Shown one piece after another: positions 3,991 to 58,778 of a stretch of 62,686 bases of DNA. The notes under the pieces are model-generated. The model did not search any database. It saw only the letters and a list, made by a program, of their open reading frames with translations, and was not told where the DNA came from. The stretch's first letter is position 1. Each line of letters starts with the position of its first letter. Source of the DNA: Candidatus Falkowbacteria bacterium (lineage in GTDB: Bacteria; Patescibacteriota; Patescibacteriia; UBA11705; JABHMO01). The translations under genes and the position numbers were made by a program. The DNA is taken from the NCBI GenBank assembly GCA_016214755.1, contig JACRNX010000030.1:1-62686 (forward strand), written 5' to 3'.

Positions 3991-4752
3991 ATGGCGAAAA
4001 TCATCGCGGTGGTTAATCAAAAAGGGGGGGTCGGCAAGACGACAACAGCCGTGAACCTCGGCGCTTATCTGGCGGAATTCGGCAAATACGTTTTGCTGAT
4101 TGATTTGGACCCGCAGGCGAACGCCACTTCGGGGCTCGGCGTTGATTATCAGAATTTGGAAAAAGGCATTTACGAAGCGCTTTCGGGAAATTTTTTAGTC
4201 CGAGAAATTATTCAACCAACCAGTCATATCGGTTACCGGATCGCGCCCGCCACGCCGGCTTTGGCTGGCGCCAATGTCGAGCTGGTCAATATTGACAAGC
4301 GCGAGTTCCGGCTGGCGGAAGCCCTGCTCGAAGTCCGGAGCGATTATGACGTGATTATCATTGATTGTCCGCCGTCGCTCGGTCTGTTAACGTTAAACGG
4401 GCTGGTGGCGGCTGACCACGTGCTCATTCCGATTCAAGCGGAATATTACGCCCTCGAGGGTTTGGGCCAGTTAATGAGCACGATCGCGCTCGTCCAAGAA
4501 AATTTAAAACCAGAATTGTCCATTCTCGGCGCGGTCATCACCATGTTTGATAAAAGAGTGCGGCTGTCTGACCAGGTTTTTCAGGAACTTTATAAATTCT
4601 TTCCTGATAAAATATTCCGGACCGTGGTGCCGCGCAACGTGCGGCTGACCGAAGCGCCCAGCCACGGAAAATCCATCGCTCATTACGACGCTGGCTCCAA
4701 AGGCGCGCGGGCGTATGAAAAATTGGCGCGGGAGGTTTTGGAAATAATTTAA
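3991..4752 (+). CDS. parA: Chromosome partitioning ATPase ParA/Soj
   Basis: MAKIIAVVNQKGGVGKTTT deviant Walker A, and DCPPSLG. The start was moved from 3970 to 3991 because of the promoter position. Confidence 0.93.
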   Translation: MAKIIAVVNQKGGVGKTTTAVNLGAYLAEFGKYVLLIDLDPQANATSGLGVDYQNLEKGIYEALSGNFLVREIIQPTSHIGYRIAPATPALAGANVELVNIDKREFRLAEALLEVRSDYDVIIIDCPPSLGLLTLNGLVAADHVLIPIQAEYYALEGLGQLMSTIALVQENLKPELSILGAVITMFDKRVRLSDQVFQELYKFFPDKIFRTVVPRNVRLTEAPSHGKSIAHYDAGSKGARAYEKLAREVLEII

Positions 4753-4854
4753 ATAAAAAATGAAAAATAATAGATAAAAAACACAAATTAAAAATAAAAA
4801 ATTCCAAATTTATTATTTATTATCTTTCATCTTTAATTTACATATTTTAATATT

Positions 4855-6334: not shown

Positions 6335-6484
6335 GCTACAAATTACCCTTCGACGGGTTCGACAAGCTCACCGCAGGCAAGCTCAGGGCAAGCTCATCAC
6401 TACGAATGTTACAAATGAAAATTTAATTTTTCCGTCTCAAAAATCCGTACATCCGTACATCCGTACATAATCCGTAATCCGTAT
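6335..6484 (+). repeat. About 150-bp composite repeat; an inverted copy lies at 51235..51376
   Basis: Hand alignment of this segment with the reverse complement of 51235..51376 is near-identical across GCTACAAATTACCCTTCGACGGGTTCGACAAGCTCACCGCAGGCAAGCTCAGGGCAAGCTCA.. and the following ..AATCCGTAATCCGTAT words. Confidence 0.8.
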
Positions 6485-11621: not shown

Positions 11622-13070
11622 TTATTTGAATTTGGGCAGGAATTTTTTCCAACCTTTATTTTTATATGTTTCAATTTGGTGTCTGGCGGTTCTGGTTTTA
11701 ACTGAATCAATCCACTCGGTATTCGGTCCCTTGCGGTTTTTGTCAGTGATAATTTGAACCACGTCGCCGTTTTTCAGTTTGCGATCGAGCGCCACGATTT
11801 CGTTGTTGACCATCGCTCGCGCGCATTTATTGCCGATTTCCGTGTGGATGTGATAAGCGAAATCAATCGGCGTGGCGCCGTCCGGCAGGTCAATGACGTC
11901 GCCTTGCGGAGTAAAAACGAAAATGCGATTTTGGAAAACGTCAATCTTCGCGCCTTCGAGCAGTTGGGTGTTGTCTTTAAGCCCCTTCAGCCAATCAGCC
12001 AATTCATTGACCCAGGCGATTTCTTTTTTATCAATCTTGCCGGCTTCTTTGTATTGCCAGTGGCTGGCGATGCCGAGTTCCGCCTGCTCGTGCATTTTCC
12101 GCGTGCGAATTTGGATTTCCACGATTTCTTGGTCATCGCCGAAAACAGCGGTGTGCAATGATTGGTAGCCGTTTGGTTTTGGCTGGGCGATGTAATCTTT
12201 AATGCGGCCGCGGATCGGCTTCCATAAACTGTGCACAATGCCAAGGACGGCGTAGCAATCAGCGACGTCTTGCACGATGACGCGCAAAGCGACAAGGTCG
12301 TAGATTTGTTTCGCGTCGCGATTGTATTTCAGATACTTGCGGTAAAAGCTGTAATAATGCTTGGTGCGGCCGTAGATGTCGGTGGATTTGATATTTTCTT
12401 TATCGAGCCGCGTTTTAATTTTTCGAATCATGCTGTTCAATATCTTTTTTTTCAGCGGAAAATTGCTCTTGATAATTTGTTCGATATTTATGTATTCGTC
12501 CGGATAGGCGTATTTAAAAGCCGCGTCTTCAAGCCGCGACTGCAGTTCTCCGATGCCCAAGCGATTGGCGATGGGCGCGTAAATTTCCAATGTCTCGAGG
12601 GCGATGCGCTTTTGTTTGTCTGCCGGCAGAACGTAGAGCGATTGCAAATTGTGCAGGCGGTCGGCGAATTTAATCAAAATAACGCGGATATCCTCGGCCA
12701 TGGCGACAAACATTTTTCTTAAATTTTCAAGGTAGCGGTCAATGCCGCGATATTTTACCCGCGATAGTTTTGTTATCCCTTCAACCATTTTGGCGATATC
12801 AGTGCCGAATTCTTGGCGGATTTCATCGAGGGAACGTTTGGTATCCTCGGGTACATCGTGCAGAAGTCCGGCGATGACAATCGGCACTGGTAATTTTAAT
12901 TCCGCCAATGTTTTCGCGGTGTACAAAGAGTGAACAATATAATCATCGCCTGTTGTCCGTTTTTGTCCTTGGTGCGCTTTTTCCGCGAAATTATAAGCTT
13001 GCTCGATTAATTTAATATCGGCATCCGAATAATTTTGCTTAATGATTTCCTGCAATTGGCGGAAGGTCAT
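11622..13070 (-). CDS. rel: RelA/SpoT homologue (HD hydrolase + synthetase + TGS), short form
   Basis: HD motif ..HSLYTA..LLHDVPEDT. Synthetase motifs YGRTKHYYSFYRK, DLVALRVIV, GYQSLHT, EIQIRT. TGS VFTPQGDVIDLPDGATPIDFAYHIH. No ACT-type C-terminus. Confidence 0.9.
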   Translation of the reverse strand: MTFRQLQEIIKQNYSDADIKLIEQAYNFAEKAHQGQKRTTGDDYIVHSLYTAKTLAELKLPVPIVIAGLLHDVPEDTKRSLDEIRQEFGTDIAKMVEGITKLSRVKYRGIDRYLENLRKMFVAMAEDIRVILIKFADRLHNLQSLYVLPADKQKRIALETLEIYAPIANRLGIGELQSRLEDAAFKYAYPDEYINIEQIIKSNFPLKKKILNSMIRKIKTRLDKENIKSTDIYGRTKHYYSFYRKYLKYNRDAKQIYDLVALRVIVQDVADCYAVLGIVHSLWKPIRGRIKDYIAQPKPNGYQSLHTAVFGDDQEIVEIQIRTRKMHEQAELGIASHWQYKEAGKIDKKEIAWVNELADWLKGLKDNTQLLEGAKIDVFQNRIFVFTPQGDVIDLPDGATPIDFAYHIHTEIGNKCARAMVNNEIVALDRKLKNGDVVQIITDKNRKGPNTEWIDSVKTRTARHQIETYKNKGWKKFLPKFK

Positions 13071-13303
13071 GTTTCAAAATAAAAAATTAAAAATAATAGA
13101 TAATAAAGTTAAATTCAAAATTCAAAATGCAAAAATCAAAAGTTCAAGTAAAAAGTAAAAAGTTTTTGTTTTGACTTCAAAATACTTTTGGATTTTGATT
13201 TGCAATTTTGACTTTTACCTTTTGACTTCTAACTTAAATATCTTTGAATCTTTAGTCTGTATCTTTTATTTATTATTTATCATCTTTCATCTTTCTTATT
13301 ATA

Positions 13304-15542: not shown

Positions 15543-17762
<2,220 letters not shown>

Positions 17763-17992
17763 AATAAAAATTAAAAAGTAAAAAGTAAAAATGAAAAATT
17801 ACAATTAAAAAGAAAAAATGGGAAATTCAGAATTTCTTTTTTATTTAGTTCGATTAACGATAATATGACAGAGCGATTAATAATTGTCAAATTTTGTCAA
17901 AAGATTCCTCCATTCCGCTCCGCTTCAGTCGGAATGACAAAAGTGTAAACAATGTTGAACTTTCTAATACTTGAATCTTAAATCTTGAATCT

Positions 17993-22161: not shown

Positions 22162-23619
22162 CTAGATTCTATTTTCTGTTAGCATTAATTTGATGCCGCA
22201 GCCGGGAAATTTAAAATATTCCCTGATCGCGCTGACGATGAAACGCCGGTAGGGAAAAACGAGATTGTCCGCGTTATCGGCGATGATTTCAAAAGTAAGC
22301 GGCGATACTCCGCGCTGTTTGATTCCGCGGATATAGGGGGACATGAAGCCCGAGCCGCGAGGCGGCGTTTTTCTTCGCAACAGATAACGTTTAAATTCAT
22401 TTAATTGTTCTTGGCTGATTTTTTGGCGTTCAGATTCGAAAATTTCAATCGTCATTCTTACCAGCCGCTCGACCCTTCGACTCGCCCCGACGGACGTCGG
22501 GGCTCGCTCAGGGTGTCGCCCATCCCGAGTCGAAGAGTCATCTTGCCTATGGGGCTCCACTTTGGCGCCGGTTTTCGCCGAGAGGAAGATAATCGGCGCC
22601 CAGGTCAGAAACGGGAAAAAGCGGTGGAGATAGAGCGCGTATTCTTTGTCGCTTTTCGTGGTTTTATTCGGGAAGAGGTCCCATTTATTCACGATGAAAA
22701 TCAACGATTTGTTTTGTTCCAAAATTTCATTGGCTAAATTTTTATCTTGTTCGGTAATCGGTTCGCTGGCGTCAATTAAAAGAAGGCAGATGTCGCTTTT
22801 TTTAATGGCCGTCAAACTTCGCTCAATGCTTCTTTCTTTTAATTCATCTTTTATTTTTCGGTGTTTGATGATGCCAGCCGTGTCAACAAAAGTGAGATGA
22901 TATGTTTTCTCGTTTTGGACGCGTTCGATCGTCATGTCTTGGCTGTCGCGGGTGGTGTGGGGAACAGGGGAGACGATGGCGCGCTCTTCGCCGACGAGTT
23001 TGTTGAACAGCGACGACTTGCCGACATTCGGCTTGCCGATGATCGCGATTTTAATTGAGTTGTATCCAGGCGCATCGTCGGGCGAAATCCGCGCATCATT
23101 GTTTTTGAATTGCCGCCTTAGTTCGTCCAACACGCCATCCAATAAATCGCCGGTGCCGCCGCCGGTTTTCGCGGAAATGGCGAACACGTCTTTAAATCCT
23201 AATTGATAAAAATCCGCCGCTCGGCTCAAATGTTTGGCTGAATCAATTTTGTTGACCACGACGAGCGTTGGTTTTTTTGATTTTTGAATAATTCTCGCGA
23301 ACTGATTGTCCTGGGGCAGGAGCCCGTCTTTTCCGTCCACGACGAACAAAATCAAATCCGCTTCTTTGATTGATTTTTCCGCTTGGCCGGCGGAAAGCCG
23401 ATCAATTTCTTCTTCTCCTGAAACATCGAGTCCGGCGGTGTCAACAATCGTGAATTGCTGTTTGTCCCAGCCGCAAATTCCAAAACGCCGGTCGCGGGTG
23501 GTGCCGGCGATTCTCGAGGTGAGCGCTTTTTTGTCGCCGACTAAGCGGTTGAACAGCGTTGATTTGCCGACATTGGTGCGGCCGATGATGGCGACAAGGG
23601 GGAGCTTGGTATATGTCAT
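22162..23619 (-). CDS. der: Ribosome-associated GTPase Der/EngA (with an in-frame palindrome insertion)
   Basis: Two G domains (GRTNVGKSTLFNRL, DTAG; GKPNVGKSSLFNKL, DTAG, NKWD) plus a KH-like C-terminus. The start is at MTYTKLPL (23619), 13 nt after the upstream stop. Confidence 0.92.
   Translation of the reverse strand: MTYTKLPLVAIIGRTNVGKSTLFNRLVGDKKALTSRIAGTTRDRRFGICGWDKQQFTIVDTAGLDVSGEEEIDRLSAGQAEKSIKEADLILFVVDGKDGLLPQDNQFARIIQKSKKPTLVVVNKIDSAKHLSRAADFYQLGFKDVFAISAKTGGGTGDLLDGVLDELRRQFKNNDARISPDDAPGYNSIKIAIIGKPNVGKSSLFNKLVGEERAIVSPVPHTTRDSQDMTIERVQNEKTYHLTFVDTAGIIKHRKIKDELKERSIERSLTAIKKSDICLLLIDASEPITEQDKNLANEILEQNKSLIFIVNKWDLFPNKTTKSDKEYALYLHRFFPFLTWAPIIFLSAKTGAKVEPHRQDDSSTRDGRHPERAPTSVGASRRVERLVRMTIEIFESERQKISQEQLNEFKRYLLRRKTPPRGSGFMSPYIRGIKQRGVSPLTFEIIADNADNLVFPYRRFIVSAIREYFKFPGCGIKLMLTENRI
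22462..22556 (-). repeat. REP-like palindrome inserted in frame in der
   Basis: Minus-strand CACCCTGAGCGAGCCCCGACG-tc-CGTCGGGGCGAGTCGAAGGGTCG encodes ..EPHRQDDSSTRDGRHPERAPTSVGASRRVERLV.. between the G2 domain and the KH domain. Confidence 0.7.
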
Positions 23620-25134: not shown

Positions 25135-25163
25135 TTGAAGTTGTTCTAAAAGTGTGATATGAT
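25135..25163 (+). promoter_or_regulatory. Promoter TTGAAG-17 nt-TATGAT (TGn extended -10) for lepB
   Basis: -35 at 25135-25140 and -10 at 25158-25163, preceded by TGA. An 80-nt word hairpin (25168-25241) lies in the leader. Confidence 0.5.
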
Positions 25164-25247
25164 GTTTAAAAGTAAAAATGAAAAATGAAAAAGTAAAAAG
25201 TGAAGCGGTTTTTCCTTTTTCATTTTCAATTTTTACTTTTTAACCTT

Positions 25248-25847
25248 ATGCCCTTTGTCACCCGTTATTCAGAGCCAAAATTAACGCCCGCCCAAAAAGC
25301 CATTCATTTTGTTTGGGATTTGTTGAAAGTGGTCTGTGTTTCCCTAGCCATCATCATTCCCGTGCGCTATTTTTTGATTCAACCGTTTTACGTTAAAGGC
25401 GCGTCAATGGAGCCATCTTTTTTTGACCATGAATATTTGATTATTGATGAAATAGGTTACCGGTTCGGCGAGCCGAAACGCGGCGATATTGTTGTCTTTA
25501 AATATCCAAAAGACCCGTCGCTGTATTTTATTAAAAGAATCATCGGTTTGCCGGGAGAAACCGTGGAAATCGCTGACAGCAAGGTTTATATTCATCCAGC
25601 GGAGCCGGGCGCGCCTAAGTTTATTTTAGACGAGGAAAATTATTTGTCGTCGGAGGTTAATACTTTCGGAAATAAAACCTGGGTTCTCGGCGCGGACGAT
25701 TATTACGTGCTCGGCGATAATCGCGAGTCCAGTTTGGATTCGCGGACATTCGGCCCGGTTTTTCGCGAACTTATTGTCGGCAAGGTTTGGTTTCGCGGCT
25801 GGCCAGTCGCGCGGGTTGGGTTGTTTCCGTCGGTCAAATATGAATAA
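25248..25847 (+). CDS. lepB: Signal peptidase I
   Basis: S26 motifs: VKGASMEPSF (Ser), YFIKRIIGLPGE (Lys), VLGDNRESSLDSR. The start is at the ATG at 25248 because the upstream codons of the track ORF are the hairpin arm. Confidence 0.9.
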   Translation: MPFVTRYSEPKLTPAQKAIHFVWDLLKVVCVSLAIIIPVRYFLIQPFYVKGASMEPSFFDHEYLIIDEIGYRFGEPKRGDIVVFKYPKDPSLYFIKRIIGLPGETVEIADSKVYIHPAEPGAPKFILDEENYLSSEVNTFGNKTWVLGADDYYVLGDNRESSLDSRTFGPVFRELIVGKVWFRGWPVARVGLFPSVKYE

Positions 25848-25867
25848 GTTAAAAGTTAAAACTGAAA

Positions 25868-26245
25868 ATGGAAAACGAAAAGGAAAAATTTAAAACCGAA
25901 CTAAAGCGTCGAATTTATACATGGATTCTTCGCCTTATTAAATTTTTAGATAGTTCGCCAAAAGATACCATAACTTATCGGGTTGTCGATCAATTATTTA
26001 GAAGCGGCGGCAGTATTGGCGCGAATTATATTGAAGCTCAAGCATCAAGTTCCAAAAAGGATTTTGTTAATTTTCTACATCATTCTCTTAAGTCTGCAAA
26101 TGAATCAAAGTTTTGGTTGGCGATTCTTAGAGATACCAAACGCGGAGATGCGGAGAAAATTAATTTGCTTCTTGACGAACTTATTGAAATTGCCAATATT
26201 TTAGGCGCCAGTATCTTAACCGTTAAAGGCAAAAGAAAGTTTTAG
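25868..26245 (+). CDS. Four-helix-bundle protein (23S rRNA intervening-sequence protein / Avd-like family)
   Basis: ..RSGGSIGANYIEAQASSSKKDFVNFLHHSLKSANESKFWL.. matches the family signature (s-I-x-a-N-I-a-E...f..fl..a.gS..E). The size of 125 aa is typical. Confidence 0.85.
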   Translation: MENEKEKFKTELKRRIYTWILRLIKFLDSSPKDTITYRVVDQLFRSGGSIGANYIEAQASSSKKDFVNFLHHSLKSANESKFWLAILRDTKRGDAEKINLLLDELIEIANILGASILTVKGKRKF

Positions 26246-31018: not shown

Positions 31019-34000
31019 ATGTTTGCGCGATTGAAAAAAGATTCAAGATTCTTGATAGCCGTGGTTGGCGCGGTGATTATTTTCAGTTTGTTCGCGTTCA
31101 GCGCGCTGGACATTGTCCATGCGCAGGGAACGCCGGAAGAGGGGCTGGCGCTGACTGGCACGGCGGCTGGACTGCAAGCCGGACAAGACCTCCGCGTAAT
31201 CATCGGCAACATCATCAAAATTATTCTGGGATTTTTAGGCGTGCTCGCTTTATGCATTGTTCTTTACGCTGGTTTTTTGTACATGACTTCTGGCGGCGAT
31301 CAAGAGAAAGTGCAGAAAGCGCGGCGGTGGCTGGTGAACGGCGCGATCGGTTTGGTCATTATTTTTTCCGCTTACGCCATTACTTCGTTCATCATCAATA
31401 AACTGAAAACGGCGGTCAGCGGCGAGGAAGCGTCAATTGCCGGCGGCGGAGGAGAGGGTGGACTGGGCATCGGCGGCATCATGGTGTTCACCGCCGGGCC
31501 GATCACGCCCAACACGCCGGCGGCCATCAATTATCCGGTCAAAGTATTTTTTAACAAAGGAGTGGATTCGAAAACAATAAATAAAGATAATGTCCAAATA
31601 ATTAAAAAGGGCGCTAAGGGCAAAGTGGTAAAAACATTAGCGCCGATTGAGGTGATTGAAAAAGGCGGCCAGGGCGCGGACAGTTTAAGCAAGATTCTCG
31701 TTAGCGACGACCAGTTCACGGGCTGGGATGTCTGTTTAACCGATACTTCTTCCGAGAGCACCAAAAAAATATCCGAGGGATACACGCCGATGTCAATGAT
31801 TTTTGATATTAGTGAATTAAAAGGTAAGTTGCCGTCTTCAGCAACGTATAAATTTGAAAACAAAAATTCGCCGGGCGGAAGATTCACGATTAGCTGCGGT
31901 GACAAAAATAATCCGGCGAAAAAAATCATAAAAGAAAAATGGGCCACGTCAGATAAACCTTATACCCAAAAAGTGAAAAATTCTTTAGAACTGCCTAAGG
32001 AATGTTTCAACAATGTCGCTGACAATCTGTTGTATATTCAGTGGAAGAGAGCGGGCGGCGCTTGCATTAAATTTGATTACATGGCGCTGGAAATGGCGTA
32101 TGAAGATTACACTGGCGCCGAGTCCGCGGTCAGCGGCGGTTTTAACGTCAGCGGTTCAACCGTGAGATTCCTGCCAGCTGATGATTGCAAAGATCCTGCT
32201 TGCAAAGGACAAAAATGTTTTGAAAAAAATACTGATTACAAAGTAGTTTTAAAGCCAAATGTCATTAAATCAAACACTGGCATTGGTTTGTCTTGCGCCG
32301 TTGGTAGTGTCTGCCTGCATGAATTTTCGACTAACGATGTCTGCGACGTCACCGCGCCGGCTGTTTCTTTCATCGAGCCGTGGAATGGCGCGAAAGTCAG
32401 CCAGGACGCGGATGTTGATGTAACAGTGAAGGCGATTGATGACGGCGGAGTGGATTACATTGATTTTTTGGTGGACAGCGTGTTTCAGGATAAAGCGACG
32501 CCGGCCAGCGGTAAAAACGAGCAAGAATTTTACGGCTATTTTTCGTGGAATACCGAGGATATTGTTTTAGATCCAGTGACGAAAAAAGCGGTTAAAAAAT
32601 TAAAAGCAGAAGCCGAGGACTTGGACAACCATTTGGCGAGCAAGGAAATTGAGGTAACGGTTTTGCCGGCATATTGTTTTGACAAAGAGGGCGCGATTAT
32701 ATGTGATAAAGACGGCACGCATCCTGAATGCGGCAAGTGTGATGGATCTGATTGCGTGAAAGATGATGATTGCGCTGGCGTCTGCAATAAAAAGTGTGTT
32801 GACGCAGAAGCGAAGCAATGCAAAGTTAATGCTGATTGCGCGTCCGGCGTGGCGTGTAAAGGCACTTGCGAGACATTGCCGGTTATCACCAATGTCAGTC
32901 CAGATATAGCCGGCGCGGGAAATTATGTAACGATTTTTGGTAAAGGATTTTTGTCATATAAAGAAGGAGTAAGCCAAGCGTTTTTCACTGGCGCGGCCGG
33001 AGGATATTTGGAAGCAAAGATTGTTAATTGCGTGGCAGGCAAGCCGGCCTGGTCATATAATCAAATAATCGTAAAAGTGCCTGAACTGGCTGGCACTGGC
33101 CCAATTAAAATAATAAATTCAAGCGGAAAGGAAGATGATACACAGGACGAGGATGGCTGGCAGGGCGAGTTTGAGTTCGACGCGAAAATAAAATATCCGG
33201 GTTTGTGCGCGGTCCAATTACAGAGTTGTACGCCGTCAAATATTGTTTCATGCGACGAAGGCGCGGTCGGCGATTCAGTCAAAGCAATAGGAATAAATTT
33301 CGGGCATGAGATGGCTGATTATGACATGATTTATTTCGGCAGCGCGCCGTTCGGGCAAGGCGCGGGCTTTGATTGGAAGGATAAGGAAATAAAAGGAATC
33401 CAAATACCAATAGTTAATCCTGCTAGTTATGGTGTGACTGTGGCCAAAGAGGATTCGAAGGATATTAATAAAAAAATTTACAGCAATCCGGTTTATTTTC
33501 ATGTTATTCCAGCCGCCAATCTGCCGAAGATTGATAAAGTCAGTCCAATGCCCGCGCCGTTTGGCCAGATGGTAACGATTAGCGGGCAATATTTTGGAGC
33601 AAACGTCGGTCATGTTGAATTTAGGCGATACATTAACGGCCAGCCGTATGATTGGGTCGCGGGTTTGGCCTGCGCCAGTGGAAGCTGGTCAGACAGTGAA
33701 ATCATTATTAAAGTGCCGAAAGAAATCGCCAATACTATTGCCAAAATCGAAGGCGCGGACGCTTTTAGCAAGGATTATCAAATTATTGTTTATAACTCGA
33801 AAGGGTTGGCCAGCAAGCCGGTTGATTTTGAAATTAACAACAAGGCGCCGGGGCCGGGCTTGTGTTCGATCAGTCCAAACAATGGGCCAGTCGGGACGAA
33901 ATTTAATTTATCCGGTGAAAATTTTGGCGAGTCAAAAGATTATTACATAAAATTTCCTGCGCCTGACAAAAAAAATGTTAATGTCACTGCTTTCAAAACA

Positions 34001-42278: not shown

Positions 42279-42701
42279 ATGATAATTGAAATTAATAATC
42301 AAACCGATTATTCTATCCCGAAAGAAAAGATTGACGCTTTGCTCCGTCTGGCCGGCCGGGTTTTGAAAATCAGAAAAAAACAGCGGATATCGGTTGCTTT
42401 TGTCCCGTCCGCGCGGATCAGGGAAATGAACCGGATATATCGCAAAAAAAATAAAATAACTGATGTCTTGTCATTCGCGCTTTCTCCGTCTGAATCGGAA
42501 ATAATTATTTGTCCGTCAGCGGCGAAAGCGCAAGCGAAAAAACAGCCCGGCGGATTCCAACAAGAAATTTTAGCTTTAGTTCTGCATGGATTTTTGCATA
42601 TTAATGGATTCGAGCATGAAAAATCAAAGATCGCCGCGAGGAAGATGGAGAAAATTGAAGAAGATATTATTACAAAATCCGAAATCCTAAATCCTAAATA
42701 A
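42279..42701 (+). CDS. ybeY: rRNA maturation RNase YbeY
   Basis: HGFLHINGFEHE metal-binding motif; 140 aa. Confidence 0.88.
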   Translation: MIIEINNQTDYSIPKEKIDALLRLAGRVLKIRKKQRISVAFVPSARIREMNRIYRKKNKITDVLSFALSPSESEIIICPSAAKAQAKKQPGGFQQEILALVLHGFLHINGFEHEKSKIAARKMEKIEEDIITKSEILNPK

Positions 42702-42860
42702 ATTCCATCCTTCGAGGCTCGTCCCGCCTTCAGCGAGACTCGCACCTCAGGATGACAAACTACAATTCCCTAAGCCACTCTATAAATTGTTTGGAGTTTG
42801 AACATTGGAAAATTGGAGTTTGTTTAGAATTTCGATATTCGAATTTTGAATTTAAACTTT

Positions 42861-47260: not shown

Positions 47261-49327
47261 ATGGTTTACGCGGCAAATAAAATCATCCAAATTCACAAGC
47301 GCGACGGCAGTATCGTTGAATTTGACCAAGCGAAAATTTCCAGCGCCATTTTCAAAGCCATGCGCGCCTGCGGCGAGCCGGACGCGGAGAAAGCCGAGCA
47401 GTTGTCGGACGTTATTGTCGAAAAACTGAACAAAAAATTCCATCAGCGGTCCATTCCGGCAGTAGAGGAAATCCAGGACATTGTCGAGGAGGTTTTGATT
47501 GAAAGCCGGCTGATTAAAGTCGCCAAATCGTATATCATCTATCGCGACCAGCACGCTAAGATGCGCGACATTCAATCCATGATCAATTCCGACGAATTGA
47601 TGGATAACTATCTGAAGCAATTGGACTGGAAGGTTAAAGAAAACAGCAACATGGATTATTCATTGCAGGGGCTGAATAACTACGTGGCGTCGAATTTGAG
47701 CACGAATTATTGGTTGAACAAGATTTATTCGCCGGATATCAAACAGGCGCATCTTTCCGGCGATTTTCATCTGCATGATTTACAGCTCTTGGCGCCGTAT
47801 TGCTGCGGCTGGGATTTCAAGGATTTGTTGTTGCGCGGATTTGGGGGAGTGCGCGGCAAAGTCGAGAGCAAGCCGCCGAAACATTTGATGACCGCTTTAA
47901 GTCAGTTAGTTAATTTTTTCTATACTTTGCAGGGCGAAGCGGCCGGCGCGCAGGCCGTGTCGAATTTGGATACTTATCTCGCGCCGTTCATTCGCGCCGA
48001 CGAGCTGGATTTCAAAGGGGTAAAACAGCAGGTTCAGATGTTTCTGTTCAACATGAACGTGCCGACGCGGGTGGGGTTTCAATCGCCTTTTACCAATGTT
48101 ACTTTGGACTTGTTTCCGCCGGCCGACGTGGCGGAGGAGGCGGCGATCGTGGGCGGCGAGCCGCAGGCGGAAAAGTACGGCGATTTTCAGAAAGAAATGG
48201 ACATGTTCAACCAAGCGTTCATTGAAATAATGATGGAAGGCGACCGCAAAGGCCGAGTGCTGAGTTGGCCGATTCCGACGTACAATATCGCGAAAAATTG
48301 GGATTGGGATTCAGCGATAATCAGTCGGATTATGGAAATGACCGCCAAATACGGCATTCCGTATTTTTCCAATTTCGTGAACAGCGACATGCGGCCGGAA
48401 GACGCGCGCAGCATGTGCTGCCGCCTGCGGCTCGACAACCGCGAATTGCGCAAGCGCGGCGGCGGTTTGTTCGGCGCCAATCCATTGACTGGCTCAATTG
48501 GTGTAGTGACCATTAATATGGCCCGGCTGGGGTATTTGGCGAAAACAAAAGAAGAATTTTTTGAACGATTGGCCGGACTGATGGATTTAGCCAAAACCAG
48601 TTTGAAGATTAAGCGCAACGCCCTGGAGAAATTCACTGACGGCGGATTGTATCCGTATTCACGGCACTATTTAAGCGGAATAAAAGAACGTTTCGACGAA
48701 TATTGGAAAAATCATTTTAACACCATTGGTTTGAACGGCGTTAATGAGGCCTGCTTGAATCTGCTTGGCGTTGAACACAGCATCGCTTCAGTTGAAGGCC
48801 GTAAATTCGCCGGTCAGGTTTTGGATTTTATGCGCGAGCGCATGATGGATTATCAAAATGAAACGAACGAGCTGTTTAATCTGGAAGCAACGCCGGCCGA
48901 AGGGACGTCTTACCGTTTCGCCCGGCTTGATAAGGAAAAATTTTCCGATATAATCGTCGCCAACGAGCAGGCCTGGCAAGAAAAAAAAGCGGCGCCGTAT
49001 TACACCAATTCAACGCATTTGCCGGTCGGTTACACGGATGATATTTTCGAGGCATTGCGCTTACAAGATGATTTACAGACGAAGTACACTGGCGGCACCG
49101 TCTTGCATGGTTTTATCGGGGAAAAACTGCCGTCAGCGGACAGCACGAAATTGCTGGTGAAAAAAATCGCGGAAAATTTTCATTTGCCGTATTTCACCAT
49201 CACGCCGACTTTCAGCGTCTGCCCGATTCACGGCTATCTCGAAGGCGAGCACGAGTATTGCCCTTTCTGCGATGAAGAAATGGGCTACGCGGAAGAAGCG
49301 GCGAAATTGGAAAAATTAGGTAATTAA
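47261..49327 (+). CDS. nrdD: Anaerobic ribonucleoside-triphosphate reductase, large N-terminal piece (lacks the glycyl-radical loop)
   Basis: ATP-cone (IHKRDGSIVEFDQAKISSAIFKA) and a class III RNR core. It ends after the zinc ribbon CPIHG..x..CPFC, and no RVxGY motif occurs before the stop. Confidence 0.9.
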   Translation: MVYAANKIIQIHKRDGSIVEFDQAKISSAIFKAMRACGEPDAEKAEQLSDVIVEKLNKKFHQRSIPAVEEIQDIVEEVLIESRLIKVAKSYIIYRDQHAKMRDIQSMINSDELMDNYLKQLDWKVKENSNMDYSLQGLNNYVASNLSTNYWLNKIYSPDIKQAHLSGDFHLHDLQLLAPYCCGWDFKDLLLRGFGGVRGKVESKPPKHLMTALSQLVNFFYTLQGEAAGAQAVSNLDTYLAPFIRADELDFKGVKQQVQMFLFNMNVPTRVGFQSPFTNVTLDLFPPADVAEEAAIVGGEPQAEKYGDFQKEMDMFNQAFIEIMMEGDRKGRVLSWPIPTYNIAKNWDWDSAIISRIMEMTAKYGIPYFSNFVNSDMRPEDARSMCCRLRLDNRELRKRGGGLFGANPLTGSIGVVTINMARLGYLAKTKEEFFERLAGLMDLAKTSLKIKRNALEKFTDGGLYPYSRHYLSGIKERFDEYWKNHFNTIGLNGVNEACLNLLGVEHSIASVEGRKFAGQVLDFMRERMMDYQNETNELFNLEATPAEGTSYRFARLDKEKFSDIIVANEQAWQEKKAAPYYTNSTHLPVGYTDDIFEALRLQDDLQTKYTGGTVLHGFIGEKLPSADSTKLLVKKIAENFHLPYFTITPTFSVCPIHGYLEGEHEYCPFCDEEMGYAEEAAKLEKLGN

Positions 49328-49534
49328 GAAATTAAGAAAACAAGAAATTAAGAAATTAAGTAATTGGTAATTTGGAAATTAAAAATTAAAAATGAAAAAC
49401 GAAAAGGATAAAGGAAAAACCGATATTTTAGGCGCGAGTGTTTTAACTGTTAATGACAAAAAGAGCGTTTTAAGTTTTTAATTTCCCTTTTTACTTTTTC
49501 ATTTTCAACTTTTAATTTAAAGGAACAACATCTT
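49328..49534 (+). repeat. 207-nt intervening cassette in nrdD: internally deleted four-helix-bundle gene (mini-ORF 49392..49481) between inverted word arms
   Basis: The mini-ORF MKNEKDKGKTDILGASVLTVNDKKSVLSF matches the N- and C-termini of 25868..26245 (MENEKEKFKT / NILGASILTVKGKRKF). The arms AATTAAAAATTAAAAATGAAAAACGAAAAGG and CCCTTTTTACTTTTTCATTTTCAACTTTTAATT are inverted. Confidence 0.75.
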
Positions 49535-51234: not shown

Positions 51235-51376
51235 ATACGGATTACGGATTATGTACGGATATACGGATTATTTGAGACAGGAAAATTAAATTTTATTTGT
51301 AGCATTTGTAGTGGTGAGCTTGCCCTGAGCTTGCCTGCGGTGAGCTTGTCGAACCCGTCGAAGGGTAATTTGTAGC
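51235..51376 (-). repeat. Inverted copy of the 6335..6484 composite repeat
   Basis: Its reverse complement aligns with 6335..6484 over about 140 nt with few differences. Confidence 0.8.
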
Positions 51377-56478: not shown

Positions 56479-57435
56479 ATGAAACGTGGAAGCAATAATT
56501 TTTTGCCAAAGGATAATTTTCGGCCACGCAAACGGTTGGGGCAGAATTTTTTGATTGATAAAAATATTTTGCGAAAAATTATGGCCGCCGCTCGTTTATC
56601 AGCCGCGGACAACGTGCTTGAAGTCGGCCCGGGAAAAGGCATTCTGACCGAAGAGCTCGTCAAAAAAGCGAAGCGGGTCGTGGCGGTGGAAAAAGATAAA
56701 AGATTGGCAGAAGAAATTCTAAACAAATCACAAATTCCAAATTACGAATTACGTCCTTCGAGGCTCGCCCCGCCAGAAGCGGGGCTCGCACCTCAGGATG
56801 ACAAGTGCGTTTTCTCTGTCACCCTGAGCCCATTCGACGGAGTTTATCCTGAGCGAAGTCGAAGGGCTCAGGGTAAACTCTGTCGAAGGGACGATTTACG
56901 AATTATCTGCGCCGACATCTTGAAGATTACGGCGGACGATTTGCGGGAATGGTTTAACGCTGAACCGTATAAAATCGTCGCCAATTTGCCGTACAATATC
57001 ACCAGCCGATTTCTACGGCAGTTTTTGGAAAGCGACTATCAGCCGAAAGAAATGATTTTAATGGTCCAAAAAGAAGTGGCTGAGCGCGTCGTCCAAAAGC
57101 CCGGGCAGATGAGCTTGTTGTCCGTGTCAGTGCAATTTTTTTGCGAACCGGAAATTTTGTTTTTTGTCTCAAAAAATTGTTTTCAGCCGGCGCCGAAAGT
57201 TGACAGCGCCGTCATTCGATTGAACAATATCCGGCGCGATAAGTTCGCGATTCCAGCGGATATTTTTTTCGCGGTGGTGAAAAAAGGGTTCAGCGCCAAG
57301 CGCAAGCAGTTGAAAAACAATCTTGGAGTGACCGCGACGGCATTAAGTCAGCTGGGGCTTAAGCCAACAGTCAGGCCGCAGGAGCTTTCAATGGGCGATT
57401 GGATTAAATTGGCGGAAAGAGGTGGTAGATTGTAG
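56479..57435 (+). CDS. rsmA: 16S rRNA (adenine1518/1519-N6)-dimethyltransferase RsmA/KsgA (with an in-frame repeat insertion)
   Basis: KRLGQNFL, VLEVGPGKGILTE, VAVEKD, ANLPYNITS. An extra block of about 60 aa lies between the SAM-binding strand and the ..IICADIL.. strand. Confidence 0.88.
   Translation: MKRGSNNFLPKDNFRPRKRLGQNFLIDKNILRKIMAAARLSAADNVLEVGPGKGILTEELVKKAKRVVAVEKDKRLAEEILNKSQIPNYELRPSRLAPPEAGLAPQDDKCVFSVTLSPFDGVYPERSRRAQGKLCRRDDLRIICADILKITADDLREWFNAEPYKIVANLPYNITSRFLRQFLESDYQPKEMILMVQKEVAERVVQKPGQMSLLSVSVQFFCEPEILFFVSKNCFQPAPKVDSAVIRLNNIRRDKFAIPADIFFAVVKKGFSAKRKQLKNNLGVTATALSQLGLKPTVRPQELSMGDWIKLAERGGRL
56728..56906 (+). repeat. About 180-nt composite REP-like insertion, in frame, inside rsmA
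   Basis: Contains a family-A unit (56755-56804, also at 42709-42758 and 58712-58761 rc) and a GTCACCCTGAGCC..GGCTCAGGGTAAAC palindrome. It is bounded by TTACGAATTA words on both sides. Confidence 0.75.
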
Positions 57436-58572: not shown

Positions 58573-58778
58573 TGTTTTGTCATGCTTCGAGAGCCTCAGC
58601 ATGACAAGCATCCTCGGCGTGACAGAATCTTCGCGTGAAGAAAGTCGCCCCTCTGTGTCACCCTGAGGCTCTCGAAGGGTGACATTGGGTGACATTTGGA
58701 AAACGTCCTCATGTCATCCTGAGGTGCGAGTCCCGACGAAAGTCAGAGCGAGCCTCGAAGGATGACGAAGAGAATATT
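58573..58778. repeat. Tandem array of three or more REP-like palindromes
   Basis: GTCATGCTTCGAGAGCCTCAGCATGAC (58579-58605, also at 27644-27670 and 43219-43245); GTCACCCTGAGGCTCTCGAAGGGTGAC; and the family-A unit at 58712-58761 in reverse orientation. Confidence 0.8.

Follow-up and report, generated by a model that had tools for sequence, protein, structure and literature searches.

How did 29 residues that its homologues lack come to stand inside an essential protein? Der is an essential ribosome-assembly GTPase, and the original prediction, made on the 62,686-nt stretch of DNA that we call the window, held that der carries a hairpin inserted in frame between the second G domain and the KH-like domain. 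The source of the DNA is an ultra-small bacterium of the candidate phyla radiation. The gene is located as follows.

22162-23619, minus strand: der (engA) coding sequence, 485 aa (open reading frame list and translation).

In translation, the 485-aa protein starts with the Met at MTYTKLPLVAIIGRTNVGKS and consists of two tandem Ras-like G domains and a C-terminal KH-like domain. Pfam matched MMR_HSR1 twice along the protein (E = 4e-62) and placed KH_dom-like at residues 400-479, and EngA structures in the PDB were matched at E = 1e-77. Both G domains keep G1 (GxxxxGKS), G3 (DTAG), G4 (NKxD) and G5 (SAK), as judged from the translation and from invariant alignment columns. This genome has a single der, the remaining tblastn matches being weak and to other GTPases. 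Because it is the sole copy in the genome and all of its G motifs are intact, Der with the insert most likely still functions.

As predicted, an in-frame insert was found after G domain 2 and before the KH domain; it is 87 nt long. Its parts and its immediate flanks are the following.

22471-22557, minus strand: in-frame insert, 87 nt, coding the 29 residues EPHRQDDSSTRDGRHPERAPTSVGASRRV (residues 355-383).
22474-22512, minus strand: repeat unit CCTGAGCGAG-[inner hairpin]-CGAGTCGAAGG, read as PERAPTSVGASRR (genome-wide pattern catalogue).
22484-22503: inner hairpin GCCCCGACG-TC-CGTCGGGGC with a perfect 9-bp stem (inverted-repeat search).
22471-22484: right arm of the outer inverted repeat, 14 nt (GACCCTTCGACTCG on the plus strand; inverted-repeat search).
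22526-22539: left arm of the outer inverted repeat, 14 nt (CGAGTCGAAGAGTC on the plus strand; inverted-repeat search).
22555-22560, minus strand: GTGGAG (Val-Glu), upstream member of an imperfect 6-nt direct repeat on either side of the insert (read from the sequence).
22468-22473, minus strand: GTCGAG (Val-Glu), downstream member of the same repeat (read from the sequence).

The flanking VE/VE repeat makes the placement of the insert ambiguous, and 22468-22554 fits equally well. GTGGAG and GTCGAG agree at five of six positions, which may be chance, and where they flank the insert the relatives have a single K-V-[E/D]-R-L. Of the features by which a MITE is recognized, terminal inverted repeats and a target-site duplication, the locus has 14-nt inverted arms and, as a possible duplication, this 5/6 flanking repeat, which may be fortuitous.

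To establish whether the segment is general to Der, we looked for it in orthologues. It was missing from 26 aligned homologues, from all of the 119 best homologues in a search of 5.8 billion proteins, and from all of 40 related genomes searched by tblastn. In each of these 40 relatives the match to Der broke at residue 354/355 and restarted at 382/383 while the DNA ran on contiguously. The relatives' junction reads SAKTG[F/A]K[V/I]-x-RL without a linker, and in 19 of the relatives the insert junctions were compared codon by codon. Recurrent insertion of a hairpin in the der genes of relatives was considered and rejected, as the matches break in G013 and G003 at a different loop, which has Lys/Glu-rich expansions there; in the der of G009 the break falls where the translation is an unresolved run of X. 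The 5.8 billion proteins contained no same-species allele without the insert, the best homologue being 54-55% identical, and the insertion can therefore be neither dated nor demonstrated to be polymorphic.

Compared to the genome, with a GC content of 44%, the insert is GC-rich (62-64%). The inner stem pairs 22484-22492 with 22495-22503. The outer 14-nt arms are 93% complementary; the right arm is paired in both the RNA fold and the DNA fold, and the left arm represents part of a second unit, oppositely oriented. The segment had been described as a near-perfect palindrome. This held for its inner part, as GCCCCGACG and CGTCGGGGC alone are perfectly complementary, but CACCCTGAGCGA and GAGTCGAAGGGTCG are not complements of each other; they are the conserved frame of a repeat family. 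The stems in der depart from the consensus of that family, with GACACCC.. and ..GGGTCGAG in place of GTCACCC.. and ..GGGTGAC. BLAST detected no close paralogue of the left 40 nt and no full-length paralogue of the 87-nt insert, and matched the two modules alone. Given the off-consensus stems and the lack of a close paralogue for the left 40 nt, the limits and the precise identity of the inserted unit are uncertain.

The family itself is abundant in this genome, and the suggestion that the der hairpin is of the same style as the intergenic REPs is borne out by its size. In 1.09 Mb we counted 166 loci with the frame CCTGAG..TCGAAGG, compared to ~2 in shuffled sequences, and there are 82 strict copies here compared to 0-11 in relatives. 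The units are hairpins of 17-66 nt, often nested, that begin GTCAYCCTGAG, and a loop of the family is GAGGCTCTCGA. The great majority lie between genes: 121 of the 166 loci do not touch any crudely called ORF, and at 11 the copy overlaps the edge of one. These are many dispersed, short, GC-rich, mostly intergenic hairpins, as expected of REP-like repeats. The unit at 22474-22512 in der belongs to the CCTGAGCGAG..CGAGTCGAAGG sub-family, and copies elsewhere in the window include the following.

58657-58681, plus strand: intergenic family copy GTCACCCTGAGGCTCTCGAAGGGTGAC, in a stretch given as 58662-58761.
58718-58761, plus strand: intergenic long-loop unit, in the same stretch.
42709-42751, minus strand: copy of the long-loop sub-family, CCTGAGGTGCGAG..hairpin..CGAGCCTCGAAGG (pattern catalogue), overlapping the edge of a crudely called ORF at 42308-42745 (minus strand).
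6347-6387, minus strand: 41-nt variant CCTGAGCTTGCCTGCGGTGAGCTTGTCGAACCCGTCGAAGG (pattern catalogue).
51324-51364, plus strand: twin of the 41-nt variant CCTGAGCTTGCCTGCGGTGAGCTTGTCGAACCCGTCGAAGG.

The inner hairpin of der is a copy of an 18-mer, CCCCGACGNNCGTCGGGG, that occurs 18 times in the genome in four different host palindromes. Neither the outer frame nor the inner 18-mer is therefore unique to der. The 18-mer was present as one copy each in 2 of 60 relatives, and its membership in a pan-phylum family was rejected because it was absent from all of 20 genomes of other phyla. Judging from this distribution, it is a separate, lineage-restricted module.

We found 18 copies in frame within 15 identified genes, including rsmA, alaS, mnmA, tsaD, polA and radA, so that at least 14 identified genes besides der carry in-frame copies. 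The claim that a second essential gene in the window has such an insert was confirmed for rsmA (56479-57435), which has two units in a stretch listed on the plus strand (56755-56865).

56755-56797, reverse orientation: first family unit in frame in rsmA.
56823-56865, forward orientation: second family unit in frame in rsmA.

About 11% of copies (18/166) are within identified genes in a genome that is 83% coding by a crude ORF call. All five stop-free frames are used by the intragenic copies and the TGA frame never is, which indicates that the copies are read. The inserts in mnmA and tsaD are missing in 11 of 12 relatives. Matches to NCBIfam profiles are split into at least two stretches in alaS, mnmA, tsaD, tsaE, murE and hrcA, and in alaS, mnmA, tsaD and tsaE the match boundaries abut the repeat. 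At least 15 genes of one 1.09-Mb genome thus carry inserts of this kind.

Where in the protein the extra residues fall was examined by mapping the site onto an EngA structure. It is a surface position, approximately residue 336 of B. subtilis EngA (PDB 2HJG), directly past the G5 motif (SAK) of G domain 2 and before the helix towards the KH domain. AlphaFold2 modeled residues 351-377 as coil with pLDDT < 50, between a strand at 343-345 and a helix at 377-397, with confident domains on either side. The 29-residue insert is probably a hydrophilic, disordered loop.

Taken together, these data make it very probable that a composite copy of a dispersed REP-like hairpin family entered der once this lineage had diverged from those of its relatives that have been sequenced. 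The inserted DNA would comprise one full CCTGAG..TCGAAGG unit, with the small hairpin CCCCGACGTCCGTCGGGG nested in its loop, and a partial inverted unit. It would have entered the exposed turn that leads from the last strand of G domain 2 (with the G5 SAK) to the helix running to the KH domain, and it would have been tolerated there since 87 nt preserves the reading frame and the frame used has no stop codon. A predicted disordered loop of 29 residues would then be acceptable immediately after the G5 motif of Der. Rickettsia and REP-rich bacteria provide earlier cases of palindromic repeats translated within essential genes, and the der insert is of this known kind.

It could be speculated that the insert has been put to use, either as an mRNA hairpin that slows ribosomes or tunes the stability of the der mRNA, or as a loop that serves as a lineage-specific linker or ribosome contact. 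The structure is strong, with an RNA fold of -60 kcal/mol over 141 nt and z-scores of -3.2 (RNA, 141 nt) and -3.0 (DNA, 87 nt); the insert sits exactly at the boundary of G domain 2 and the KH domain; and in a single-copy essential gene it cannot be harmful. We nevertheless consider this improbable. Members of the family lie in 14 other genes, where their positions are unrelated, both orientations occur and no open frame is left unused; a filter, and not a function, leaves such a pattern. No relative has anything at the der site. Furthermore, the insert peptide is predicted to be disordered and the der copy has decayed relative to the family consensus. The most likely explanation is that the insert is selfish or neutral DNA filtered by selection and not an adaptation.

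Another possibility is that the insert is an artefact of assembly or binning, or a minority variant, or that der is a decaying pseudogene in a metagenome-assembled genome. The genome is a repeat-rich draft of 71 contigs, repeats break assemblies, and fragments of transposases lie at five contig ends. Still, this is very unlikely, as the insert, flanked by unique sequence within a 62.7-kb contig, has a length divisible by three, contains no stop codon and disrupts neither the KH domain nor any G motif. An artefact would not keep the frame in der and in 17 other intragenic copies, and there is no second der gene.

Removal of the segment before the protein is finished, whether as an intron-like or otherwise processed RNA, by translational bypass or as an intein, is scarcely credible. 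A tight hairpin together with a short direct repeat is vaguely like the signals for bypass or excision, but 87 nt and 29 residues are far below the size of a group I or group II intron or an intein. The insert had no match in Rfam at E up to 5 and therefore resembles no known structured RNA there; its open frame means that plain translation suffices; and the avoidance of the stop-codon frame by the intragenic copies implies reading. Finally, a native, lineage-specific linker that is self-complementary by chance would fit the variable length of Der and the Lys/Glu-rich expansions in another loop of its relatives, but this is contradicted by the repeat catalogue, in which each half is a dispersed repeat that the genome has dozens of times at other places, by a GC content foreign to der and by the finding of a residue there in 0 of 119 homologues, and we give it practically no weight.

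If the der insert is indeed a copy of a dispersed family, the question becomes how that family spreads. Its hairpin is shared, to the extent of an exact 27-mer, by phyla that range from Patescibacteria to Nitrospirota, Spirochaetota and Acidobacteriota. One candidate for a partner, the REP-associated tyrosine transposase that accounts for classical REPs, was rejected, as the matches to PF01797 are of the IS200/IS605 type with unrelated hairpins. One RAYT-like ORF in the genome is a truncated remnant that holds a different palindrome, and in other phyla 120 motif sites had no Y1 gene closer than 8 kb. No Y1/HUH gene flanked by the same hairpins was thus seen, as a REP/REPIN-RAYT system would have, and the family units lack the GTAG/CGTC tag. 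The name REP was for this reason kept in part only: the hairpins are dispersed in the manner of REPs and, with no such transposase linked to them, are called REP-like. Other repeat families in the genome do carry GTAG/CGTC tags (GTAGAGACG.. and CGTCATTGCGAGG..).

The hairpin is physically associated with a different gene, which encodes a small GIY-YIG protein. At the gene G000:C35:25765-26061, the commonest variant of the genome (29 copies) lies 20 nt upstream and sister hairpins lie on both sides. Starting from the motif, 5 of 120 loci in other phyla have a GIY-YIG homologue directly bracketed by the hairpin. Starting from the gene, among 63 metagenome loci a unit was present upstream in 44, downstream in 48 and on both sides in 40; for control windows the figures were 5 of 86 (at a distance of 1-1.3 kb) and 5 of 126 (shuffled). 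A fixed layout, in which the small gene has a forward unit on its upstream side and a reverse one on its downstream side, was found in 35 of the 63; the bracketed layout is present too in G000:C35, G018, G025 and five loci of other phyla.

The protein is ~95 residues long and SLX1/UPF0213-like, with Tyr, Tyr, Arg, His and Glu positions that are invariant. Its profile matched the UPF0213 structures 1ZG2 (E = 3e-19) and 1YWL (E = 2e-16), and SLX1 more weakly; NCBIfam assigned no family to the two GIY-YIG proteins of this genome. There are 1-11 copies of the gene per ~1-Mb genome, some with stop codons. Simple co-variation of gene number with hairpin number was not seen: this genome has two genes and 166 hairpins, whereas strict copies are few in relatives, whose GIY-YIG genes number up to 11.

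We infer from this arrangement that the nuclease would move the hairpins. An SLX1-like GIY-YIG nuclease would cut them structure-specifically and they would then be copied into new sites, which is the most likely route by which the family spread; such sites would include the loops of other hairpins and coding sequence. More tentatively, and with rather less confidence than in the insertion itself, we suggest that the der insert may be a stray copy of a pan-bacterial counterpart of REP-RAYT, in which the ~95-residue SLX1-like nuclease (UPF0213) recognizes the flanking CTGAG-loop-TCGAAG hairpin or cruciform and spreads or maintains the repeats. We found no relevant literature on the motif sequence or on any link between GIY-YIG proteins and REPs, and a hairpin family that would travel across phyla with a tiny nuclease gene appears in no paper that we found. 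If true, this would give a role to the widespread UPF0213 family of "unknown function", whose structures were solved without a known function, and would add a new nuclease fold to the enzymes that drive REP-type repeats. If the nuclease moves the hairpins, it would also explain how repeats arrive in coding sequence. In our view the repeat family is worth more than the der insert itself.

Compared to canonical Der/EngA (B. subtilis 2HJG, T. maritima 1MKY, E. coli 3J8G), the protein shares two G domains, a KH-like domain and all G motifs, and differs by 29 added residues past G5 of G domain 2, near B. subtilis residue 336.

The Rickettsia palindromic elements (RPEs) offer one precedent. In the work of Ogata et al. 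(2000, 2002), as summarized in PMC10969869, RPEs are ~100-150 bp long, occur only in Rickettsia and have no known partner gene. According to the same review, they are, like the hairpins described here, dispersed palindromes that keep the frame in a small genome's housekeeping genes, many and unrelated, adding peptide segments where the protein fold allows; translation here is predicted. In contrast, our hairpins are 17-66 nt long, occur in many phyla and are tied to a GIY-YIG gene, so the likeness to the RPEs of that account is one of behavior alone.

A second comparison is with the prokaryotic stand-alone SLX1-family GIY-YIG proteins (UPF0213), which have been described, with no mention of palindromes, as vertically inherited and probable repair enzymes (Dunin-Horkawicz et al. 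2006, PMC1564403). Unlike in that account, the genes here number 1-11 per ~1-Mb genome, some have stop codons, and they are bracketed by hairpins.

A third comparison is with intragenic GTAG/CGTC REPs and the REP/REPIN-RAYT "REPtrons" (Di Nocera et al. 2013, PMC3733652; Nunvar 2010, PMC2817692; Bertels and Rainey 2011, PMC3116915). The family differs from these in having no GTAG/CGTC tag and no nearby Y1 (HUH) transposase, here or at the 120 loci in other phyla, and in flanking a gene with a GIY-YIG fold that is SLX1/UPF0213-like. As in those systems, the hairpins are short, GC-rich and mostly intergenic, some lie inside genes and code for 20-30 extra residues, and the commonest hairpin variant stands in inverted copies on both sides of a nuclease gene.

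Homologue alignment moved the start of der from the GTG of the listed ORF (23694, minus strand) to the Met of MTYTKLPLVAIIGRTNVGKS. The gene and the segment studied here are as follows.

22162-23619, minus strand: der, 485 residues
22471-22557, within der, 87 nt, ends approximate: in-frame segment EPHRQDDSSTRDGRHPERAPTSVGASRRV, residues 355-383, between FLSAKTGAKV and ERLVRMTIEIFE

Pfam identified two MMR_HSR1 G domains and an EngA KH-like domain (residues 400-479) in the product, which matched the EngA/Der chains of the PDB at E ~1e-77. The gene is single copy; the remaining tblastn matches in the genome were weak and to other GTPases. GC content of the segment is 62-64%, compared to 44% for the genome.

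The original prediction held that a palindrome had been inserted in frame in this gene, and comparison with relatives bore this out. In every one of 40 related genomes, which share the family, order or class, the tblastn alignment broke at residue 354/355 and restarted at 382/383, the DNA of the two pieces being contiguous or slightly overlapping. An uninterrupted junction, SAKTG[F/A]K[V/I]-x-RL[V/I], was read in the ORFs of 7 relatives and the codons of 19. An alignment of 27 Der sequences had a clean 29-column gap in every row except that of the window's Der, and among the best 120 proteins from a collection of 5.8 billion (MAFFT), 119 homologues have one residue where this Der has 29. The segment is an insertion at a defined place in the protein. 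The reading K-[V/I]-E-R-L in several homologues makes AAA GTN GAG CGN CTN the probable ancestral junction. The insert is flanked today by GTGGAG and GTCGAG, which may represent a 6-nt target duplication or may be due to chance. Because the nearest homologue is only 54-55% identical, the insertion can be dated no more closely than after the genus split. The der genes of two relatives (G013, stretch L149; G003, stretch L150) carry Lys/Glu-rich expansions of 25-70 residues in the G-domain 2 loop after TIEY, which are not related to the hairpin repeats.

To place the insert in the protein, we modeled Der with AlphaFold2 from the 27-sequence alignment; mean pLDDT was 80.6, and the KH domain and each of the G domains were modeled confidently. 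Residues 351-377 had pLDDT <50 and no secondary structure; the G5 strand (343-345) precedes them and helix 377-397 follows. Mapping onto EngA, also proposed originally, was achieved by HMMER alignment and put the site at about residue 336 of the B. subtilis protein (SALTKKRI^HTLMP). Together, the model and the alignment make it probable that the insert is a disordered loop opening the last helix of G-domain 2. Der would presumably still work with the insert, which is likely neutral.

Inverted-repeat searches of the insert identified a perfect 9-nt pair, GCCCCGACG/CGTCGGGGC (22484-22492 and 22495-22503), and a 14-nt pair of 93% complementarity (22471-22484 and 22526-22539). The pairing first put forward, CACCCTGAGCGA with GAGTCGAAGGGTCG, did not hold: these strings are not complementary, and they form the frame conserved in the repeat family. 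Predicted folding energies were -60.2 kcal/mol (z = -3.2) for 141 nt of RNA around the insert and -24.1 kcal/mol (z = -3.0) for the 87-nt insert as DNA. The reading we prefer is of one unit, CCTGAGCGAG-[loop]-CGAGTCGAAGG, whose loop holds a small nested hairpin, CCCCGACGTCCGTCGGGG, plus a partial second unit oriented the other way. BLAST paralogues cover the full unit and the nested hairpin only; a BLAST search for a close copy of the left 40 nt found none.

The insert belongs to a dispersed family, as the original prediction supposed: the 1.09-Mb source genome has 166 loci with CCTGAG..[TC]CGAAGG, versus ~2 in shuffles. The commonest form is the 17-mer CCTGAGGCTCTCGAAGG within GTCACCCTGAGGCTCTCGAAGGGTGAC (29 copies). 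Longer units hold a nested hairpin in the loop, and units also nest within one another's loops. The inner 18-mer CCCCGACGNNCGTCGGGG is present in 18 copies; as CCCCGACGTACGTCGGGG (contig C63:5388-5405 and 17 other sites) it is nested in loops of four distinct host palindromes, and a single copy directly abuts a tRNA 3' end (..CCA). Two distant relatives have one identical copy apiece, and 20 genomes from other phyla have none. Two sister families accompany these repeats, one with the same loop and other stems (GTCATG[GC]TTCGAGAGCCTCA..CATGAC, 43 copies) and one tagged with CGTC (CATTGCGAGG..GAAGCAATC, 39 copies). Separately, AT-rich 7-8-nt word repeats (AAAATGA, AATTAAGA and similar) occupy many spacers of the window (4737-4822, 13063-13169, 17748-17839, 25149-25249, 49306-49528), with long imperfect inverted pairs between distant sites.

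By a crude ORF call, under which 83% of the genome is coding, ORFs contain 34 of the 166 loci, and 18 of these are in 15 genes.

Genes carrying hairpin copies
Named by NCBIfam: porB, alaS (two copies), mnmA, pyk, ackA, tsaD, tsaE, murE, hrcA, radA
Named from Pfam: der (one copy)
Named from translation: rsmA (two copies)
Taken, on reading the translation, to be: polA, a UvrD-like helicase, a membrane protein (two copies)

NCBIfam profile matches fell into at least two stretches in alaS, mnmA, tsaD, tsaE, murE and hrcA, and the match boundaries adjoin the repeat in the first four. The mnmA and tsaD inserts are missing in 11 of 12 relatives. The tsaD of relative G014 (C3:34134-35216) aligned in one piece to all 376 residues of the source genome's TsaD, unlike that of 11 other relatives, and may have an insert of its own in the corresponding loop. 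Reverse orientation accounts for fourteen intragenic copies and forward orientation for four; frame scoring, as initially suggested, found all five stop-free frames in use and the forward TGA frame never. In-frame hairpin copies are a genome-wide pattern. Identified genes contain about one in nine of the copies, a sign that most insertions into genes are strongly selected against; those that survive keep frame and sit in tolerant places. In mnmA (C5:19303-20511) and hrcA (C45:2386-3177), the hairpin-coded segments are joined to Lys-rich or QDDK-type low-complexity runs (in HrcA, for example, ILRQAQDDKRQVQDDKWSIRNDKKRARNKRVQNDK), which suggest several stacked or decayed units.

The strict family occurs in 12 of 41 relatives at 1-11 copies each, versus 82 in the source genome. 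The exact 27-mer GTCAYCCTGAGSNNNTCGAAGGRTGAC is present in at least 120 stretches from many phyla and groups (Spirochaetota, Nitrospirota, Acidobacteriota, Bacteroidota, Ignavibacteria, Eremiobacterota, Dehalococcoidia, Rickettsiales and others). Frequently the 27-mer alternates with a sister hairpin in which other stems surround the same CTGAGCYTGTCGAAG core; at such loci (for example L029:6397-7195, L095:1053-1421, L113:1-512 and L134:4893-5679) the loop is conserved and the stems vary.

A tyrosine transposase was considered as the partner and rejected. The Y1 transposases of the source genome are IS200/IS605-like and have their own, different hairpins. The sole ORF resembling a REP-associated tyrosine transposase (RAYT) is a truncated remnant with a GTAG-type palindrome: C1:14787-15026 encodes the C-terminal half only, with one in-frame stop (tblastn), and begins within a GTAGGGAACGCATATATGCGTTCCCTAC palindrome, directly after a gene that we take, from its translated C-terminus, to encode a tryptophanyl-tRNA synthetase. 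No Y1 gene was detectable in the 120 8-kb stretches from other phyla with the three queries used. An IS200/IS605-type transposase 3' end with a CTGCGGGCTAAAGCCCGCAG hairpin recurs at five contig ends of the source genome (C4:3-92, C30:12718-12807, C31:8225-8317, C67:8476-8565, C70:5799-5891); this element is multi-copy and breaks the assembly.

A PF01541 search of the source genome identified two small GIY-YIG genes (~99 aa) outside the window, which share contig C35 and are each set among repeats.

C35:25765-26061 (region 25600-26110): GIY-YIG gene 1; commonest unit 20 nt upstream of the start, sister hairpins on both sides
C35:31912-32208 (region 31700-32330): GIY-YIG gene 2; bracketed by CGTC-tagged palindromes CGTCATTGCGAGGAG..CGACGAAGCAATCTC

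Gene 2 is closely followed by a degenerate copy of the inner 18-mer. Starting from the motif, a GIY-YIG homologue was found at 6 of 120 loci from other phyla, directly bracketed by hairpins in 5. Starting from the gene, we scanned metagenome contigs with a 7-sequence alignment that has invariant Tyr, Tyr, Arg, His and Glu positions, and retained the 63 loci flanked by 250 nt or more both upstream and downstream. Hairpin units were present upstream at 44, downstream at 48 and on both sides at 40. In 35 of the 63 the upstream unit was forward and the downstream unit reverse. Control counts were 5 of 86 for windows at a distance of 1-1.3 kb and 5 of 126 for shuffled flanks. Long-loop versions of the unit are present at many loci that a narrower pattern overlooked. 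The forward-upstream, reverse-downstream layout is also present in relatives G018 and G025. The hairpin family is physically associated with a small GIY-YIG gene across phyla, and we infer that the nuclease mobilises the hairpins.

The protein profile matched two UPF0213 structures, 1ZG2 and 1YWL; its match to the structure-specific endonuclease SLX1 was weak. Of 41 related genomes, 39 carry genes of this type, at 1-11 copies, and some of the genes contain stop codons; this suggests a selfish habit rather than housekeeping. Gene number does not follow hairpin number across genomes. We found no paper tying GIY-YIG proteins to REP-like repeats; a 2006 survey of the superfamily described this branch as vertically inherited, probable repair enzymes, and never mentioned palindromes (PMC1564403).

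By itself the der insert is ordinary, and the link between family and nuclease is the part worth pursuing. The insert behaves as Rickettsia palindromic elements and intragenic REPs do. Its family differs from the REP-RAYT kind in two defining respects, having neither a GTAG or CGTC tag nor a linked tyrosine transposase. The insertion is therefore an event known in kind, and the repeat system behind it looks like a new variant.
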